Positions 3,956-45,809 of a stretch of DNA of 64,000 nt are shown piece after piece. Position 1 is the stretch's first letter. The number at the start of each line of letters is the position of its first letter. Source of the stretch: Stegostoma tigrinum (lineage: Eukaryota); contig NC_081366.1 in the NCBI RefSeq assembly GCF_030684315.1, positions 7,192,001-7,256,000 on the forward strand, written 5' to 3'. The translations under genes and the position numbers were made by a program. The notes below the pieces were generated by a model. That model saw nothing but the letters and a program-made list of their open reading frames with translations, ran no database searches and was not told the DNA's origin.

Positions 3956-5444
3956 ATTGCACATTGGCATACGGATTGTGAAGCAGAATTAAGCCGCACA
4001 TGCTGATTGAAATTTGAGAAGAATTTCAACTTCATGTTTCCTCCGACTTATGTGACTGTAGAGTGAAACTGGATTGAAACACTTTAAAGACATATGGGCC
4101 TGACAACATTTATGGAATTGTACGGAAGATGTGAAGTCCAGAATTTGCTGTGGCCCGAGTCAAGTCGATGGACTAAAGCTGCAATATTGGTATTTCTTTG
4201 ACAATGTGGGAACCTGGAGTGACTGGATTAATTGTACGTTTAATCTTTCCTCATAAGGCAAGCTATTCATCGCGGAAACTAATCTTGTAAATTTTCTCTA
4301 CACTTCCTTCCATGGTGTTACATCCTTCCTCAAGTTAGGATACTAAGATTGTATACTCCAGATTATCATTTGTTGTGAGGAGAATTGAATGCAAGAAAAA
4401 GTAAGGCAATGCTTATTATTTTGGACAACAATATAAACGATCCGGAGTCTATGCACGGTATTGATCATGCTATATCAAGAAAGATGTAATATATATTGAT
4501 GCAGAGTGGAAAAGATGCATTGGATTAATACCACGAATGACCAGTGTCTTATAATGAAAGTTTCAAAACACTATTTTGTACATGTTGGAGTTGGAAGAAG
4601 AGGAGGCAACTTGATTTAAAATATAAGATTCCAAAGAGTCTTGCTAGGGTAGAGAGATGGGTGATGTTTCATCGGTTACGACTTTCAAGAACTAACAGCC
4701 ACTATTTAAATGTAATTTTCCTTTAAAAAGTGAGACTAGTTTGGTTTTGCTTCTTAACGCCATTTTCAGTCTTTATAATAAGCTCACAGAAAACATCGTG
4801 GGAGAAGAATCCTTGACTCTTTTCTACAGAATGAAGTGGAAGTTACTGGTAAAGTAAGGTGGTGAGCTGTTTTCATGCCTAGCAGGGATTGAAGATTTCA
4901 TTTTACAATTAAATTAACTCAGACAAAATTGAATGGCGGCAAAAGGCAAGAAGTGTGGACTCGCACCTTCTGCTCCTTTTTTAGCGAATTTTAACAAAAT
5001 TAAACAGAATTTCACGTAACAAGTTGTGTTAATTATCTCAGTTATTTTGAATAATTTATATCATTCAGGAATATTTCTAAACCGACGACATTTTGTTCAA
5101 GCAATGTGATTCATTGCGTGACAAGCAGTGGCCAAAAGGCAATAAACAAACTGTTCAACCGAAGAGCTGCGCTTGAGGAATACATTTGTTATCACAGAGT
5201 TCTATATTTAAACTCAATAGATTAACTCTCTAAAACCCTCTCTAACTTTCAGCGTCTATTCTAATGTTAACGGCAAACACAAAATCGCATTTCAGACACT
5301 GCATCTCAAAAGTTTGCGGTCCATTTCTACTAGAAAGGAAGAGCAAGCATTTCAAAAACGAAGATAGTCTCGGGTTTCATTTTGTGGGGATACACATAGG
5401 TGTACAGATTCAAAATTAATTGTATTGCGCATTGGTTCGGTACA

Positions 5445-15550: not shown

Positions 15551-16334
15551 ATGAAACTGCATATTTTTGGACTGGATTACAACCAGTGTGCTGCATTGGG
15601 GCGAAGTTATCTAATTTAATACAACCGCAAACAAGCATTCATAATGATTATGTGCATATGTGGCAGAGATCCGGTGCCAGAGAGGGTCTCAGTGACGTTT
15701 TACCATCCATTTAGCTCAAGGAAGGGAGATAGAAATTCTTTGGTTTCTTGTAGAATTATGAAGCATGGAGAATGGGATGTAAAGTACATCCGTGAGAAAA
15801 TATGACCCATGTTCAGCGTAGAAAAAGGCACAAAGAACGTTCTAATCTAAGGCTGCCCCTGTGTTTTTTTCCTGTTTTTGTGATGATGATTATGCAAGAT
15901 GGAGGAATCAATTTGATTTAGTTCACTTGTGGTCTAACAGCTAACATTCTGATCCTGTGAAATACTGAAATTTTCTGAAGAAGATGTCATGAAAGGATTA
16001 GAGACTAAATTACCATGGATGCTGGAGTCCAAGGTAGACAAACAGGAGGCTGAAAGAACACAGCAAACCAGGAAGGATCTGGAGGAAAGGAGCAGTCCTG
16101 AAGAAGAGTAATAGCGAAAACACTGATCTTTTTTCCTCCAGATCCTGTCTGGCTTTCTGTGTTCTTTCAATCTCTTAAAAAGGATTTCATGGCTTCACAG
16201 AAGTGTTGATGCAGTATCGTTATTTTGTTGCCTGGTTATTGAAGGAAATACGTCCATTGTGCTCGAGACCGCTAATTATTGCTTAAATAGTACCCACTGA
16301 ACTTGTTTTGCAAATAAAGCATCAGACAATACCG

Positions 16335-37589: not shown

Positions 37590-37965
37590 TAAGAACTGCA
37601 TGCAGACGAAACATAGCGTAGAGGCGGAGGAAGGCAGCAGCCCAGGCAGCATCAGAAGAGCAGGAAAGTCGATGTTTCGGGTTGGGACCATTCTTCAGAA
37701 ATTTCAGCAAGTCTTATGACACCGAGGTATCTCTAAATAAAAAAACCAAAAGAACTGCGGATGCTGTAAATCAGTTACAGGAACAAAAATTGCTAGAAAT
37801 GCTCAGCAGGTCTGACAGCATCTCGTGAGAAAAAAAATCACAGTTAGCGTATCAGAACAGGCTCTGAAGAAAAGTCACCAGACGGAAATTGTTAACTGTT
37901 TTTTTTTGTCGCCACAGATGCTGCCAGAACTGCTGAGCATCGCCAACAAACTCTGTTTTTGTACC
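37590..37965. mobile_element. Cluster of Penelope-derived short elements, including a head-to-head inverted pair
   Basis: Minus-strand copy 37635-37700 (CTGAAGA...CCCGAAACATC). 37741-37965 has inverted arms CTCAGCAGGTCTGACAGCATCT / AGATGCTGCCAGAACTGCTGAG around a degenerate hammerhead at 37863-37897. Confidence 0.7.
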
Positions 37966-37984: not shown

Positions 37985-39480
37985 ACACCATCTAGGGCCC
38001 TTCCATTAACTATATAAGTCCTGTCCTTCATTTAACCAAAATGCAATATCTTGCGTTTGTCAAAATTAACTTGATCTTCCACTCCTCAGTTCATTGGTCC
38101 AAGAATCTAGATCCTTTTCTAATTTGGGATAACTTACTTCATTGTCAACTCTGCCATCAGCTTTCGTGTCATCTGCAAACTTACTAACCATGCCTCCTAA
38201 TTCTTCATCTAACCCGCTTATAAACACGACAAACATCAATAGACCCAGCACCAATCCCTGTAGAACATTATGCGTCACAGGTCTCCAATCTGAAAAAAAC
38301 AACCCTCTACCATCTACAGAGATAGGAGGAACTGTCGAAGAAGAGTCCCGACCCGAAACGTCAAGCTTTCCTGCTCCTCTGATGCTGCTTGGCCTGCTGT
38401 GTTCATCCAACTTCACACCGTGTTATCTCAGATTCTCCAGCATCGGCAGTTCCTACTATCCCGCTACCATCCACCTTCTGTTTCCTATTTTCAAGCTAAT
38501 TTTGTATCCAATTGACACACTTCCCCTGAATTCCATGTGATCCAACTTTACTAAGCAGTCTATCATCTTTAAACTTCTCAAATGTCCACATAGAAACATA
38601 AAAACATATACTATATGAGCAGAAGGAGGCCATTAGACCCTTCGAGCCTACTTCCCCATTCTTACAAACCTATAGCCTATAGCCAATAGCCATCTCCATC
38701 GTTGATTGTCTAACTTAATAGCCTAATCCTGCTTTCTCCACATAACTTTTTATCCCATTCGCCCCAGGTGCTATATGTAGTCACCTCTTGACTATATTTT
38801 TGTTTTGGCATTAACTACTTCCTGCAGTAATAAATTCCACAGGCTCACCACAATTTTGGTAAAGAAATGTCTACTCATCTCCGCCCTAAATCGTCTCCGA
38901 ATTCTCAAACTGTGAACCCTGGTTCGGTACTCACTCACCATCGTGAACATCCGTCCTGCATCTACACTGTCCAGTCCTGTTAGAATTTTAAAAAACATCG
39001 TCTACCACTCTGGGCTCATCACTCTTTTCATTTATTTCCTCAAATAAGTAAATCGTGTTTGTGAGACGCCATTTCCCACGGACCAAGACATGCTGATTCC
39101 CCGAAATCAGACCTTCCCTTTCCAAATGCTTTTGAATTCTATCACTCAGAATCCAGTCCAAAAACTGGGCTACCACGGATGTCAGGCTCATTAATTTGTA
39201 ATTCTCCAGCTTTCCTTGCAGTCTTCTTTAAATAAAGGCATAACATCAGCCATCACCAAGTCCTCCAGAACATTTACCGTGGCAACAGACGTTACAACTA
39301 TCTGGGGTGGAGGCCCTGCAATTTCTTCTCTAACTTCCCACAACTTTCTAGGGTACACTTGATCAGCTCCGAGACATTAATTCATCTTTATGCTTTTTTT
39401 TAAACCTCCAGCACCTCCTCTTCAGTAATGTAGACTGTTTTCAAGACATCAATATTTATTTCCCCGAGTTTGTTAGCCGC
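37985..39480 (-). mobile_element. Nested CR1 LINE fragments
   Basis: VLQGLVLGLLMFVVFI...SKFADDTK (38066-38300) and SLTSVV...NQHVLVRGK (38988-39191) are interrupted by a second CR1 3' end (38590-38990, TRVHSLRIR...FFTKIVVSLWN). Confidence 0.8.
38315..38460 (+). mobile_element. Short Penelope-derived element with a 5' inverted end, inserted in a CR1 remnant
   Basis: GAGATAGGAGGAACTG is the inverted copy of the 3' end CAGTTCCTACTATC. Damaged hammerhead (GAAGA...CCCGAAACGTC). CTACCATC on both flanks is a candidate TSD. Confidence 0.7.
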
Positions 39481-39679
39481 CATGTATTTGCGGTGTAACC
39501 CGACCATAATTCATGCTCCCAAGCCACACTCACCCGCACCACCTCCCACGGCCCCCGCCCATCAAGGTTCAAAAGGAGAGCAAATAAAATGTTCTGACAC
39601 AAGTAGTGAATGCTGCATTGCTGCTTCTAACTTGTAATAAAATGATAGATACACCAAGAATGCATAGGATTGTATGCTC

Positions 39680-40282
39680 TGGCAAGTTTTGTGAAGATTT
39701 GTAGCTCAGGCTGAGGTTCTGGATGTACACACTAAAACAGCAGCTAAAGAACTTAAAAGACCCTATACAGACAACAAGCAAAACGAACGGCATTTACAAA
39801 ATACCTTGCAAGAACTGTGACAAACACTACATTGGACAAACTGGCAGAAAGCTAGCTACCAGGATACATGAACATCAACTAGCCACAAAACGACATGACT
39901 CACTATCACTAATACCCTTACATACAGATGAGGAAGGACACCACTTTGATTGGGACAACACATCCATCCTAGGACAAGCCAAACAGAGACACGCACGAGA
40001 ATTCCTAGAAGCATGGCATTCCAACCGGAACTCCATCAACAAACACATTGAGCCAATCTGCCATCCTCTGAGAAAAAGAACAGGAAATGACACCACCAAC
40101 ACAGGAAATGACATCAACACAGGAAATGACATCACCAACTCAAGGAACCCTAAACACAGAACTGGAAAGCCGGAAGTAACACCAGCACTTCACCGGAGGC
40201 TCACTGATGATGTTACCTAGGATGGTAACGAAACGTCTGGGAACAAATCTTCCAGCTCAGTGAATCAGCTTACATCTGGAAC
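39680..40282 (+). mobile_element. 5'-truncated Penelope-like element (GIY-YIG endonuclease end plus pLTR) with a short inverted terminal segment
   Basis: ORF 39723-40220 has GIYKIPCKNCDKHYIGQTGRKLATRIHEHQ...AREFLEAWHS (GIY-YIG). It is followed by a hammerhead motif. 39680-39727 reads as the inverted continuation of the pLTR end (minus strand TACATCCAGAACCTCAGCCTGAGCTAC). Confidence 0.88.
40200..40241 (+). ncRNA. Minimal type I hammerhead ribozyme motif (Penelope pLTR)
   Basis: CTCA-CTGATGA-T-GTTACC-taggat-GGTAAC-GAAA-CGTC-TGGG: intact core, perfect 6-bp stem II, palindromic ACGT stem III, GUC cleavage triplet and 4-bp stem I (one G-U). Confidence 0.8.
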
Positions 40283-40441
40283 AAAATAAAGACCCACTCT
40301 TTTGTGGACTGAGAAGAGGACAGCGCGACGGTGTTGGAGGTGGAAGGAAGATGTCGGGTTAGCTGTGCACCCTTGCAACAGATGGATCTTAATGCTGGTT
40401 TCAGCATAACACTGGTTCAGGGTAGCAGCCAACCTGCAACG

Positions 40442-41887
40442 CTGGCTGCAGCGAGTGCTCGTGCCCCGGGTCAGGGGGTCCGGAACACCAGTGTTTCCGT
40501 GAAGAAGGTGGATGAAGGTGCACCTGTGGACCGCACCTTCTTCGTGAAGAGGGCCCTGTTGGACTGTTGTGGGTTCACTGCTGTGGACATTTACTGCCTG
40601 CAGGATTTCCCTGGAGGAGGTTTTTATGATGTAACCTTCAGGAGCGCCAAGCTTTGCGAGCACTTCCAAGAAGTTTTGAAGGAGAAAGGAGGTGAGGGCC
40701 CCCTCTCTGTACTGACCGCTGTCCCACTGTTCATGATGCCAGTGCAGAGGAACCGTATGGTAACTGTACACATGTACAATCTGCATGTGCCAGCAGTTGG
40801 TGTCCTGACCCTCCTCAGAAGGTATGTGAAGGTGGAAGAGGAGCTAACCAACGTCGTGGACCCCTTCAGGATCTGGACCAGTAAGAGGCAGGTCAGGGTG
40901 ACGCTGAGGATGGGCTCGGACGGGAACATCGTACACCCACCGTCCAGCTTCGCGATCGGTGGGAGCAAGGGCGACCTGACCTACGCAGGGCAACATAAAG
41001 TCTACCATGCCTGTGATAGGTCAGGTCACGTGGCGGCCGACTGCAAAGCCACCATCTGCAGGAACTGCAGGGAGGAGGGAAACCTTGCAAAGGATTGCCC
41101 AAAAGAAAAAAGCTGCAACCTTTGCGGGAAAGCGGGCCACCTCTACAGGGCATGCCCGCAGCTGGGGACCACATTCGCCCAGGTCGCCGGCAGGGGCAAT
41201 GCAGGGCAAGCCCACCCGGAGGAGAGGAAGGCACCAGGGCCCTGCAAGGACCCCCCTAGTGTGCCAGAGGGCCAGGTCGTGCAGGAGGGCCCAACCCCGC
41301 AGGATGGACCTGAGGCCAGCAAAGCGCCCCTGCAGGCTCCACTCTCCCCCGACAACCCGGAGTCAATGGAGGAGGTGAGAGGTGACCCAGGGGAGTGGAC
41401 GACGGTCTGGAAAGCAAGGAGGAAGGCATGCCGGCAGGCCCAGGTGGGAAAAGGCAGCTACAGGGGAGCTATAAGAGCTCCTCTGACGAGGGAGATTCGG
41501 AGGAGGGCCACCCAAAGCAGAAGCTAAAAATCTCAAGAGAGGAGGAAAGCAGCACCCCACTCCCAGGTGACGGGAGGCATCTTGAGGCTCCCTCTGACAT
41601 CCAGCCACACGCTGCTGGGGCCCTGGAGGGCCCCCCGGAACTTTCAGGCAGGAAGGAGGAAACAGCATGTCCCCAGCCTGACCCAGAGCCGGACTGTCCT
41701 GCCTCCGCACCCCCAACGGGGAGTTGCCACCCGGGAAGGCAGCATGGATGGTTTCCTGAGCCCGGAGAGCGTCCAGCAGTTAGCCCGGGCAATGGGCATG
41801 AAGGGACAAATGGAGGGGCTGGACCTTGGACTTGGGGAGGGTACTGCGGTCACTGCCCACAATGGGGTTACGAGTTGCGAGCATTAA
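40442..41887 (+). pseudogene. Tx1 ORF1 (ZCCHC3-like, three CCHC knuckles), frameshifted
   Basis: FYDVTFRS...DPFRIWTSKR...HPPSSFAIG followed by three knuckles (the first two damaged, CNLCGKAGHLYRAC intact). The likely start codon reads CTG. The frame shifts near 41450 and again near 41700-41730. Confidence 0.8.
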
Positions 41888-44800
41888 TGTGCACAAAATC
41901 AAGTCCACTGCAAGATGTGTGTCCACGTTGGCCTACCTGACCACCATCAAGGCAGACCTCCTGTTTCTGCAGGAGTGTGGGATACCGCACCTCAGCAGGT
42001 ATGGGAAACGGTCAGGCACCTGGACCTGTGAGCCTTCGATCTGGTTGGGGGGTAACGACTGTCGGTCCTCAGGCCTGGCTATTCTGCTGTGGGGGCGCAA
42101 CTTCACCATTTCTCAAGTTCAGGAGGTGGTGGGGGGTGCGCCTCCTAGCGGCTGATGTCACCTACAGGAATGCTCCCCTGAGGCTGATCAACATGTACGC
42201 CCCAGCGGTACAGAGTGAGCGGTTGGCTGTCCTGCAGCGGCTTCCACCCCTGCTGGCTACGTCCAGGCCAGTCATCCTAGGCGGAGACTTCAACTGCATC
42301 ATCAATGCAGATGGAAGATCCGGCGTGGGGACAGCGGGTGGGGGGAGTCAACTGGACGTCACGTCCAGATTCCTGATGGGCACGGTGAAGGACACCAAGC
42401 TGCTCGACGTCTCCAGCGCCCCTGCAGACGGACCGCAGCGGAGATACACCTGGTCGCGGCCAGACAGGTCTACCCGCTCAAGGATAGACTTCCTGTTTGT
42501 GTCACGGGCGTTTTTGGTCAGGTCCACTAGCGTCGAGCCGGTGTTCTTCTCTGACCACTGCCTCCTGCTGGCCGACTGTCACTTACAGGACCACCAGAAG
42601 GCCGGCAAGGGGACGTGGAAGCTCAACACGATTCTGTTGACCCCAGAGAACATCGAGGAGCTTAAGAGGGATTACGCCGGTTGGAGAACCATGAAACCCC
42701 TCTTTGAATCTCCGGGCGACTGGTGGGAGACAGTGAAGGAGAACATCAAGAGGTTCTTTGTCCTCAAGGGTGTTCAGAAGGTGAGAGAGAGGCGGGGAAA
42801 GCTGTCGCAACTCCAGAAAAGGGTGCAGAACCTGCTCCTCCTGCAGTTGATGCGGGTCGATGTCACAGAGGACCTCCGCGAGGTGAGGGGCCAGCAAGCC
42901 TCGCTCTTCACCGCGGAGGCCTCCAGGATAATCTTCCATTCCAGGGTCCGCTCCGTGCAGCAGGACGAGACGTGCTCATGTTTCTTCTTTCAGAAGGTGC
43001 ACAAAGAGAGCTCTGTGCTTTGCCGGCTGAAGGAGGATGGCAGCTCGGTGATATCAGCATGTCCCAACATTTTGAGGATCAGCAGATCATTCTATGCCGG
43101 ACTGTACGACACAAAGCCCATGGACAGCACGGCCTCCGAGTCGTTCCTGTCGTCTATCACGGAGGTCTTAGATGATGGCACGAGGGAGTGGCTGGGCCAG
43201 CCAATATCCCTGGACGAGCTGACCAGAGCCCTCAAGTCCTTGGAGAGGAATAAGACTCCTGGGAGCGACGGTTTACCGGGCGATCTGTATTCTGCTCTGT
43301 GGGACCTGGCCGGCCAGCACCTGCTGGAGGTGTACGATAGTGCGCTTCGGGCAGGGGAAATGTGCAAGTCCATGAGGAAGGGCATCATCACCCTCATTTA
43401 CAAGAGGAAGGCGGAGAGGGAAGAAATTAAGAATTGACATCCCATTTCACTATTGAACGTGGACTACAAAATCCTGGCCAATGTCATAGCCAACAGGGTC
43501 AGGTCTGTCCTGGAGTCAGTGATTCACCCTGACCAAACCTGTGCTGTGCCAGGCAGGAAGATCGCTGAGAGCCTAGCGCTCATCAGGGATATGATCGCCT
43601 ACGTGCAGGACAGGCGGGTGGACACCTGCCTCGTCAGCCTGGACCAGGAGAAGGCCTTCAACAGGGTCCCTCATGCTTACATGAGGGACATCCTCTCCAA
43701 ATTGAGGTTCGGGGGGGCATCCGCAATTGGATCCAGCTGCTCTACACCAACATCGTTAGCGCAGTCTTGATCAACGGGTGGGAATCAGACAGTTTTCCCG
43801 TCAGATCTGGAGTCAGGCAGGGCTGCCCGCTCTCTCCTGCCTTGTTCGTGTGCTGTGTGGAGCCCTTCACCACATCCATCAGGAAGGACGTGGGCCTGAA
43901 GGGCGTGACTATCCCAGGCAGCGGAGGCCTTCAGGTCAAGACCTCCCTGTACATGGATGATGTCGCCGTCTTCTGCACCGATCGTTGGTTGATGAGTAGG
44001 CTGTTGGACATCTGTGGCCAGTTTGAACTGGCCTCGGGTGCCAAAGTCAATAGGGGTAAGAGCGAGGCCATGTTCTTCGGGAACTGGGATGACTGCTCCT
44101 TCATCCCCTTCACCATCAGGACAGACTACCTGAAGGTGCTGGGTGTTTGGTTTGGTGGAGCTGGGGCATGCACTAAGACCTGGGAGGAGCGTATCACCAA
44201 ACTGAAGCAGAATCTGGGCAGGTGGACGCTCCGGTCCCTCTCCATTGCTGGTAAGAACCTGGTTGTCAGGTGCAAGGGGCTTTCGGTACTGTTGTATGTG
44301 GTGCAGGCCTGGCCTATTCCCTGGACCAGCGCCGTTGCGGTCACCCGGGCCATCTTCCACTTCATTTGGGGGTCGAGGATGGACCAGGTCCGCAGACACA
44401 CCACGTACAAAGACCTGGAAAATGGGGGAAAGGGCATCCCGAATGCCACCCTTGCCCTGATGGCTACCTTTGTGTGCGGCTGCATCAAGCTGTGCGTAGA
44501 TCCTCAGTGCACAAACACCAAGTGTCACTACTTACTGATGTTCTGCCTGTCCCCAGTGTTGCGAAGGATGGGCCTGGCCTCGTTGCCGCGGAATGCTCCG
44601 AGTAGTTGGACCGTCCCATACCACCTGTCCTTCGTGGAGAAATTTTTGAAATGAAACACCTTTGACCACAAGGCCGTCAGGCAGTGGTCAGCATGTAGTA
44701 TCCTCGAGACCCTTCGGGAAAAGGAGAGGGTGGATCCTGTCATGTGGTTCGCCATGCAGACTGCCAAAGTCATTTGGCAGAATGCCTCATTGCCAGAACT

Positions 44801-45292
44801 TTCAAACAAGCACAAGGACATTGCTTGGCTGGTGGTGAGAAGGCTCTGCCAGTGAGATCCTTTATGCATGCCCGGAATCTCTGCACCACCACATGCTGCC
44901 CTTGAGGTGGCTGCGGGGTGGGGGGGTGGGGGGATGAGACTGTCGATCACCTCCTTCTGGAGTGTGCCTATGTGCAGGAGGTCTGGAGGGGGATGCAGTG
45001 GCATTTGTCGAGGTTCGTCCCGAGCAGCTCCGTGACGCGGGACTCCGTGCTCTACGGGCTGTTTCCCGGGACGCACACCGAGACCAACATCAACTGTGCC
45101 TGGAGGGCCATCAATGTGGAGAAAGACGCTCTTTGGTCTGCCCGCAACTTGCTGGTCTGCCAGCTGAAAGAACTGACCCTGACCGAGTGTTGCAGACTGG
45201 CACACTCCAAGGTCCAGGACTACGTGCTGAGGGATGCGCTAAAGCTTGGGGCAACCGCCGCCAAAGCGCGGTGGGGAAAGACCACCGTATGA
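41862..45292 (+). pseudogene. Tx1 ORF2 (APE endonuclease, reverse transcriptase, zf-RVT), disrupted
   Basis: MGLRVASINV, FLQE, GGDFN, SRIDFLF and SDH (endonuclease); KTPGSDGLP, NVDYKIL, DQEKAFNRV, GVRQGCPLSP and YMDD (RT); ETVDHLLLEC (zinc finger). Stops at 43437 and 44654 and frameshifts near 42135, 43715 and 44845. Confidence 0.9.
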
Positions 45293-45566
45293 AACCCCTC
45301 ATCCAGAACAGAAAAAAAGGGTCGTATCTTTTAACTGGGCTCAGCTGGCGCCAACCCCAACTGGTCAGTGGGCCAACGGGGACAGTGCGGGGAGACGACT
45401 GCAGGGGTATTTTCTTTGCTTTGTTTTTTTTCTTTTTTTTCCTTTAGTTGGTGTACGTACCCCCTGGGAAACCCGGAGCGGCTTGCATGACTGGGTAGGT
45501 GTATAAATATGTTTTAATTTTTGTACATCCTATGAATAAAGTATATTTTTACAAATACAAAAAAAA

Positions 45567-45620
45567 GGTGACGAAACGTCTGAAAATGAACCTTCCAGCT
45601 CAGCGAGCAAACTTATATCC
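45567..45620 (+). mobile_element. Second Penelope pLTR segment beginning at the 3' strand of hammerhead stem II
   Basis: GGTGACGAAACGTCTGAAAATGAACCTTCCAGCTCAGCGAGCAAACTTATATCC aligns ungapped with 40224-40277 (about 13 mismatches in 54). Confidence 0.75.
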
Positions 45621-45809
45621 ATTTTATGCTCCATTGGTATTATCATCGACTGTTTATCCAGGAATATCCCTGTTCAAATCATGTTATGGCAGAATTCCCT
45701 AATAGATGGACTAGACCAAATGCCCTTCAGATGTATCAAGGGCATTGCCCAGATCCCAAACTTCATTTAAAGCCAGGTGTAAGATATTCTGTTGCAGGTG
45801 GAGTTTGAT

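Follow-up and report, generated by a model that had tools for sequence, protein, structure and literature searches.

Target-specific families of the Tx1 clade of long interspersed nuclear elements (LINEs) insert into U2 genes, microsatellites, DNA transposons and long terminal repeat (LTR) elements, according to the available parts of two surveys (PMC4494074, PMC3747384). Among the families that choose other transposons, Xenopus Tx1L inserts into Tx1D, crocodilian Tx1-Mar into Mariner-N4_AMi, Tx1-8_Crp and Tx1-4_AMi into LTR elements, and Tx1-9_AMi into Harbinger (PMC4494074, in the part available). Here we describe a Tx1-like LINE that lies inside a Penelope retroelement in a stretch of 64,000 nucleotides from Stegostoma tigrinum (contig NC_081366.1, positions 7,192,001 to 7,256,000; the whole stretch is called the window). 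The element very probably belongs to a target-specific family that homes on the loop of the Penelope hammerhead ribozyme, has inserted many times independently and was active recently.

The genome searched comprises 3.2 Gb, in which exact sequence patterns identify at least 1,401 element-linked sites and at least 11,959 empty-type sites, both figures being lower bounds. The best 30 matches to the 3′ end and the best 30 to the 5′ end, the window copy included, have identical flanks throughout. An exact 33-mer of the LINE 3′ end has 718 occurrences; on contig C1, the 30 that come first by position all carry the junction. The first-pass annotation of the window had suggested tabulating what follows the 3′ ends of the family. 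When this is done, (G)GTGAC is found to follow 155 of the 156 distinct ends, compared with 0 of 300 in a random-flank control. The 155 ends are joined to an empty-type tail (137), to the head of another copy (17), or were joined and then interrupted (1). The sole exception, L334, is an internal rearrangement in which the A-tract is joined to element site ~2660, beginning GGTCC. At the other side, 143 of 168 5′ ends lie behind the 5′ half of the hammerhead, 16 behind the A-tract of another copy and 9 elsewhere. Target specificity has been assigned to Tx1 families when one sequence recurs in more than 20% of the flanks (PMC4494074, in the part available), a proportion exceeded here.

The LINE enters the hammerhead at loop II (GAAT^G^GTGAC), and its 3′ junction has a wobble of 1 nt. 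The junction types in 142 ends are GG (80), G (57), GGG (1) and other (4), the call of G in L239 being spurious. The A-tract or linker measures 8–9 nt in 98 of 138 classified ends, and AATAAA is located about 17 nt 5′ of the A-tract. The flanks match none of the known Tx1 target groups (U2 small nuclear RNA (snRNA), tRNA spacer, microsatellite, DNA transposon, LTR element); they are the pseudo-LTR (pLTR) of Penelope, and within the window the junctions give no match to an snRNA or tRNA family in Rfam. Chance nesting of one element in the other is ruled out by the family-wide junction. About 10% of the pattern-matching pLTRs are occupied by the LINE, and 1 of 20 sampled long Penelope tails carries it. 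Separately, six copies with a regular spacing of ~61 kb on contig G000:C45 (2426953–2734122) represent a large tandem duplication.

In the window the LINE is 5.3 kb long, decayed, and 91% identical to an intact copy elsewhere in the genome. As the first-pass annotation had noted, a segment of the Penelope pLTR is present on both sides of it (40224–40276 and 45567–45619; 53 nt, 77% identity, with 12 differences, or 13 when position 54 is included), and the poly(A) is fused at hammerhead loop II, the right segment beginning with the 3′ strand of stem II immediately 3′ of the A-tract. The features of the locus, with open reading frames (ORFs), apurinic/apyrimidinic endonuclease (APE), reverse transcriptase (RT), untranslated region (UTR) and target-site duplication (TSD) abbreviated, are as follows.

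39669–39679, forward strand: left TSD of the Penelope host insertion (score 9 against a null maximum of 8).
39679–39726, reverse strand: inverted Penelope tail, the second arm (tail positions 49–96; 94% to a natural empty tail).
39727–40223, forward strand: 5′-truncated direct arm of Penelope, comprising the GIY-YIG end of the ORF, the pLTR and the hammerhead 5′ half to loop II (PF01541 at 20.9 bits, under the 22.6 cut-off).
40204–40237, forward strand: minimal type-I hammerhead rebuilt over the 5′ junction and found by motif scan, sequence-intact, with the architecture described in PMC4209133 and a predicted cut after 40237.
40204–40210, forward strand: hammerhead core CTGATGA.
40212–40217/40224–40229, forward strand: hammerhead stem II, seen in the fold.
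40218–40223, forward strand: hammerhead loop II.
40230–40237, forward strand: hammerhead GAAACGTC.
40224–40283, forward strand: element-borne head of 60 nt, a diverged duplicate of the target sequence 3′ of the insertion point, by which the target is regenerated.
40313–41527, forward strand: ORF1 remnant with ZCCHC3-type RNA-binding domains and CCHC knuckles (554 codons stop to stop in an intact copy).
41862–45292, forward strand: ORF2 for APE endonuclease, RT and zf-RVT, with frameshifts and stops here (1,139 codons open in young copies).
45293–45566, forward strand: 3′ UTR, with AATAAA at 45535–45540 and the short A-tract at 45557–45566.
45567–45620, forward strand: target 3′ half, comprising the stem II 3′ strand, GAAACGTC and a short form of the Penelope tail.
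45621–45631, forward strand: right TSD of the Penelope host insertion, paired with 39669–39679.

The inverted tail at 39679–39726 had escaped the first-pass annotation; its presence makes the host a two-armed Penelope insertion, with the typical structure described in PMC8557442. The 11-bp pair at the outer ends, which had been proposed as a TSD around the Penelope and Tx1 compound, is real: it is identical at 10 of 11 positions, and the null maximum is that of 342 mismatched-locus controls. The duplication is attributed to the Penelope host and not to the LINE, and outer duplications scoring 10–15 are found in 14 of 19 comparable loci.

The ages of the copies reveal many separate insertions. 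The 38 copies of a young subfamily are all full length, differ by 0.26–1.25% from the column majority and keep ORF2 open for up to 1,160 codons from stop to stop, with at least 1,074 codons in 37 of the 38. Thirteen of them stand directly in front of the head of another copy with the same A-tract/(G)GTGAC joint, about 3 times the 10% occupancy. The 12 tandem neighbours measured comprise 8 that differ by 1.85–10.6% and belong to an older subfamily, and 4 that are as young. Inverted arms with the LINE contain older copies in 5 of 7 cases. Insertions of unlike age are thus found at the identical base, and therefore do not stem from one event. Details of the joint also differ from event to event, with G or GG, non-A linkers, and a re-primed joint in L247.

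The host copies can be shown to precede the LINE. Rare variants common to a filled arm and its own empty inverted arm occur at 7.9 versus 1.7 per kb over 26 loci (0 of 500 shuffles); one of these loci, L069, has a wrong boundary, which inflates the unshared counts only. Empty two-armed controls give 12.5 versus 2.7 per kb, and the 3′ flanks equal the own second arm in L276, L281, L290 and L298. Because filled arms and 3′ flanks share variants with their own second arm, the Penelope copy was present first. In addition, the 5′-truncated L318 is flanked by a perfect 17-bp duplication which includes a rare T. The age-discordant tandems and arms, the sharing between arms and L318 all indicate independent insertion rather than hitchhiking, a minority having hitchhiked.

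L318 is one of five 5′-truncated copies genome-wide (L316–L320) with the same cut at element position 4539/4540, where the target is joined at +15 to +17. The position is a truncation hotspot with 2–3 nt of microhomology; a single amplified deletion derivative is not supported, as no private variant is common to the five copies. L101, once taken for a truncated copy, is really interrupted by a 4.3-kb insertion.

Selection on the proteins also favours targeting. Among non-CpG variants in ORF2 of 72 copies, the private ones have an omega of 1.04, and those in at least 3 copies have an omega of 0.31 (44 synonymous, 35 non-synonymous; p 3e-7). The shared non-CpG variants in ORF1 are 12 synonymous versus 2 non-synonymous. 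Both ORF2 and ORF1 are under selection, the shared variants being purifying and the private ones neutral. The suggestion in the first-pass annotation that a Tx1 family targets ribozyme-bearing Penelope repeats is thus strongly supported by the junction counts, the age-discordant tandems and selection, and these sequences argue strongly for repeated targeting rather than one fossil composite. As a separate observation, subfamily markers contradict one another from one part of the element to the next, which suggests that recombination or template switching has been frequent among the copies.

The encoded proteins carry the features of a Tx1-clade LINE, namely a CCHC ORF1, an APE-RT-zinc ORF2 and an A-tail. 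ORF1 has two ZCCHC3-type RNA-binding domains and CCHC knuckles (PF23057, PF23058, PF00098), and ORF2 has PF03372 (APE), PF00078 (RT) and PF13966 (C-terminal zinc motif). The nearest ORF2 proteins are amphibian, at 46–48% (Ranitomeya CAJ0966526.1 and Pleurodeles KAJ1167540.1 at 46–47%), followed by those of fish, Takifugu BAD04856.1 (37%, over the whole length) and a Danio 'transposon TX1 149 kDa protein' (37%); all have the same domain order. In a quick tree, built without verified Tx1L, Keno, Kibi, Koshi, Dewa or L1 references, the amphibian proteins and ORF2 form one clade with a support of 100 in the Shimodaira–Hasegawa-like approximate likelihood ratio test (SH-aLRT). Its domains and best matches suggest a Tx1-type element, and we call it Tx1-like. 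Metagenome relatives are distant (27–41%), and a plus-strand minimal hammerhead motif is found in 0 of 80. In sequencing-run contigs from other organisms, this Penelope family is present together with a diverged ORF2 relative, and there is little of the head or ORF1; among the pieces listed from four such runs, none crosses either junction. The Pleurodeles sister proteins have near-consecutive locus tags in runs, suggesting tandem arrays. Newt satellite 2 carries hammerheads.

The first-pass annotation had judged the two flanking segments too different for a plain TSD, rightly, since the left one belongs to the element. In 29 of 30 instances the variant form of the head leads into the LINE, the head evolves by subfamily, and heads of older copies are nearer to the target. 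The left segment, 40224–40283, is accordingly read from these comparisons as the element's own 60-nt head and not as a decayed TSD; a 54-bp TSD that diverged after insertion is ruled out by its family-specific sequence and subfamily-wise evolution. Since the head regenerates the target, tandem stacks can form. An A stands at +12 in 36 of 38 heads of young copies, against 5 of 25 empty-type 3′ flanks belonging to these loci. Concordance between 5′ and 3′ sides is observed at +6 (p 0.012) and +7 (p 0.043), and at +11 in 0 of 5. The true target duplication is probably ~7–10 bp and hidden by homology, because target-derived bases appear at +6 and +7 but not at +11. A 14-bp TSD ending at the ribozyme cut was ruled out, as the base at +12 comes from the element and the one at +11 in no case agrees with the 3′ flank. 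For several heads that had seemed to be mosaic crossover products, the better reading is an older head with less divergence (5 of 15 loci; the L291 partner).

Upstream of the site, inheritance with the element is also evident. The core substitution A6>T, 17 nt upstream, marks 680 of 1,401 element-linked sites, against 138 of 11,959 that are empty-type; of 15 inspected empty-type sites with A6>T, 5 are element-linked after all. The own inverted arm keeps A at core position 6. A6>T is thus inherited with the element, so that the RNA would start 5′ of the insertion point and, in roughly half of the insertions, replace target sequence. The pLTR extends at least 104 nt upstream of the site in 67 of 67 element-linked cases, and measures less than 85 nt in 15 of 49 empty sites (p 6e-7), which fits a transcription start or a need for homology about 100 nt upstream. 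In the anole element the ORF starts at stem II; on this comparison, the insertion site would fall in the fifth codon of the Penelope ORF. In that presumptive start-codon frame, the head (window 40224–40270; L268 3240–3285) has a TGA (CAG TGA for CAG CGA), so that this upstream frame ends within a few codons, ahead of ORF1.

The hammerhead is mostly mutated at the occupied sites. Rfam gives no hammerhead match in the window, a motif scan does find the minimal form, and folding z-scores of the region are weak (-1.4 to -2.1). Core and GUC are intact in 161 of 1,401 element-linked sites (11%) versus 8,280 of 11,959 empty-type sites (69%). At least 3 separate changes underlie this: A6>T, GTC>ATC, and GAAAC>GGATT/TGATT, the last in older heads; G12 is lost in 15 of 38 young copies. 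These mutations are predicted to switch the ribozyme off, and intact cores are depleted among LINE-linked sites. Few copies keep an intact motif and the window copy is among them, which is why it alone had suggested the opposite. Ribozyme-dead loci may be the better source copies, since A6>T stays at ~50% over several subfamilies though about half of the insertions would restore A6.

The preferred reading, repeated targeting by the LINE itself, has to be weighed against two roles for the ribozyme in making the LINE RNA. The first-pass annotation had raised the idea that the upstream hammerhead could define the 5′ end of the LINE RNA; as an analogue of the R2 ribozyme, the rebuilt motif would cut the co-transcript. 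A full hammerhead is indeed restored at the 5′ junction, it is intact in the window copy and in the 161 sites, and R2 uses its ribozyme in this manner (PMC3774820, in the part available). However, the bases 5′ of the predicted cut are inherited, as the A at +12 shows for the head and A6>T at -17 shows for about half of all copies, the own inverted arm having A, and the GGATT/TGATT forms of GAAAC are established in older heads. Minimal hammerheads lack stem III, need a dimer, cut weakly in vitro and are inactive as monomers (PMC4209133, in the part available). In the anole element the cut is protein-assisted and dispensable for insertion, and no reads ended at the cut (PMC11167929, in the part available). 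The genomic evidence, with inherited bases upstream of the cut and lost cores, therefore speaks against an RNA 5′ end set by a ribozyme as in R2, and we consider the idea highly improbable. A split ribozyme is an even more doubtful proposal: the 5′ catalytic half would pair with the half-hammerhead after the A-tract in read-through RNA and cut there, and the fixed 3′ end so produced, with 13–14 nt of target identity, would prime precise insertion. The dimer activity of minimal hammerheads (PMC4209133, in the part available) is in its favour, and so are the GAAACGTC kept in the 3′ flank, the narrow A-tract length, and a young head that lacks its own cut site and often keeps the core. It is opposed by A6>T in about half of the copies, by the loss of G12 in young copies, by AATAAA so close to the A-tract, by a G/GG junction type that is independent of subclades, and by 3′ flanks that are target-derived from +6 on.

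A further alternative is that a Penelope–LINE composite arose from one or a few old insertions and was amplified as passive cargo, the LINE having no targeting of its own. The host has the parts of a Penelope-like element: RT and GIY-YIG in one arm, a pLTR with a minimal hammerhead, a tail and an inverted arm. Longer copies of the direct arm carry the RT domain, the GIY-YIG in the window being below the cut-off; genome searches recovered no full-length autonomous Penelope. Both arms derive from one template in 5 of the 11 two-armed LINE loci, all older (L068, L063 and three further pairs), and from unrelated sequences in 6. In the five, the arms are each other's closest match and share 9–15 variants that are absent from 66 other copies and spread along the arms, compared with a control rate of 0.13 per kb; inverted arms with the LINE lie inside an outer duplication of 10–14 bp, and L068 has no Penelope sequence between the arms. 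The narrow A-tract would also suit a cargo. Yet cargo would decay neutrally, whereas shared ORF2 variants are purifying and the young subfamily has open ORFs, which likewise argues against a non-autonomous Penelope derivative or retrozyme. The Penelope arms are short (median 326–405 nt upstream) compared with a 5.3-kb LINE that is complete in 38 of 38 young loci, the two arms are unrelated in the 6 loci just mentioned, and young copies abut older subfamilies at the identical base. The age-discordant tandems already refute cargo as the sole explanation, which makes it the least probable of the three. The Penelope enzyme probably also copies LINE-bearing RNA as a minor second route, and conversion between inverted arms is the alternative, which may account for one block in one locus. 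The composite unit raised in the first-pass annotation is retained in this minor capacity, for the 5 of 11 two-armed loci, and its hammerhead-defined 5′ end is unsupported.

Several observations weigh against targeting as the full account. The loci sampled were the best-scoring or first-listed matches and not random draws. The omega test of ORF2 within the young copies alone gives p 0.33, and those copies were chosen for an open ORF2. A-tracts so narrow in length are odd for priming in free poly(A), and the agreement between the two sides at +6/+7 is weak, the 23 older copies lacking it. Targeting alone makes neither the five one-template loci nor L067, L082, L085, L094, L095 and L098, 5′-truncated copies that are preceded not by the hammerhead half but by an inverted arm or by a direct arm with a long deletion.

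With repeated targeting as the preferred explanation, a course of events can be proposed. Transcription would start from the Penelope pLTR, a promoter borrowed from the host. The endonuclease of the LINE would nick the bottom strand at GAAT^G^GTGAC for target-primed reverse transcription, and the top strand would be cut ~7–10 nt downstream. For 5′ joining, the target-like head and upstream Penelope sequence of the LINE RNA or cDNA would probably anneal to the target, with a variable crossover. Ribozyme-dead sources would be selected, since cleavage at +14 would cost the RNA both its cap and its homology. By the minor second route the Penelope enzyme would copy LINE-bearing Penelope RNA (hitchhiking). 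Tentatively, with a confidence that falls slightly short of even, the element may be seen as a two-way hyperparasite: an active LINE that seeks out the loop of the ribozyme and the fifth codon of another retrotransposon, takes the promoter, rebuilds the site at its own 5′ end, has silenced the hammerhead repeatedly in evolution and is itself spread by the telomerase-like enzyme of its host.

Other repeats are present in the window. Another Penelope-like family, distinct from that of the host, lies 2 kb upstream at 37610–37963 and 38337–38424 and has inverted arms and the GAAACGTC motif. A copy related to it, with RT and GIY-YIG motifs, interrupts L077 (2137–4466 of the oriented locus), and no LINE of the window's Tx1-like family was seen at the hammerhead of this second family. 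The inverted repeat at 16049–16171 scores 37 bits against a microRNA-family threshold of 80 and is probably a hairpin repeat, not a microRNA.

The findings add a new target class to target-specific Tx1, a Penelope ribozyme within a retroelement that is itself mobile, and probably represent R2-style 5′ joining in an APE-type LINE. The intact young ORF2, the single-base fidelity (155 of 156) and the mostly full-length insertions offer a substrate for questions of APE target reading and second-strand priming. The 69% versus 11% of intact cores is a natural experiment suggesting that minimal ribozymes cut in vivo and harm the passenger RNA, and it bears on the open question of the role of the Penelope hammerhead in vivo. 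The literature search turned up no paper that describes a Tx1 element with Penelope or a hammerhead as its target, Repbase and supplements being outside the search, so that a curated entry may exist; the part covered of an animal-retrozyme preprint (10.64898/2026.07.22.740005) mentions no such Tx1 element.

Compared with known systems, in the parts of the cited papers that were available, the element and its host share features with three. Like the transposon-targeting Tx1 families (PMC4494074), it is a two-ORF APE LINE in a repeated mobile element, it forms tandem stacks, and hitchhiking was considered and tested with truncated copies. Unlike them, its target is a Penelope pLTR, entered at one base in a ribozyme with the fidelity given above; its head is a diverged copy of the target, and its host is a retroelement able to copy the LINE. 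The head recalls R2, especially earwig R2 (PMC3774820), whose RNA includes upstream target sequence and whose 5′ junctions are uniform; a propagated and substituted duplication of the downstream target measures 22 bp in earwig R2 and 60 bp here. R2 differs in having a restriction-like endonuclease, a target in 28S ribosomal DNA and its own hepatitis delta virus-like ribozyme (PMC3774820), whereas the present element has an APE-type enzyme, and its ribozyme is the host's hammerhead, mostly mutated. The host resembles Penelope/Poseidon elements (PMC4209133, PMC8557442, PMC11167929) in its RT with C-terminal GIY-YIG and the minimal hammerhead in the pLTR, and also in the two alternative 3′ ends of its tail and the inverted, 5′-truncated second arm. 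It departs from those described in that the LINE occupies about one in ten of its pattern-matching pLTRs.

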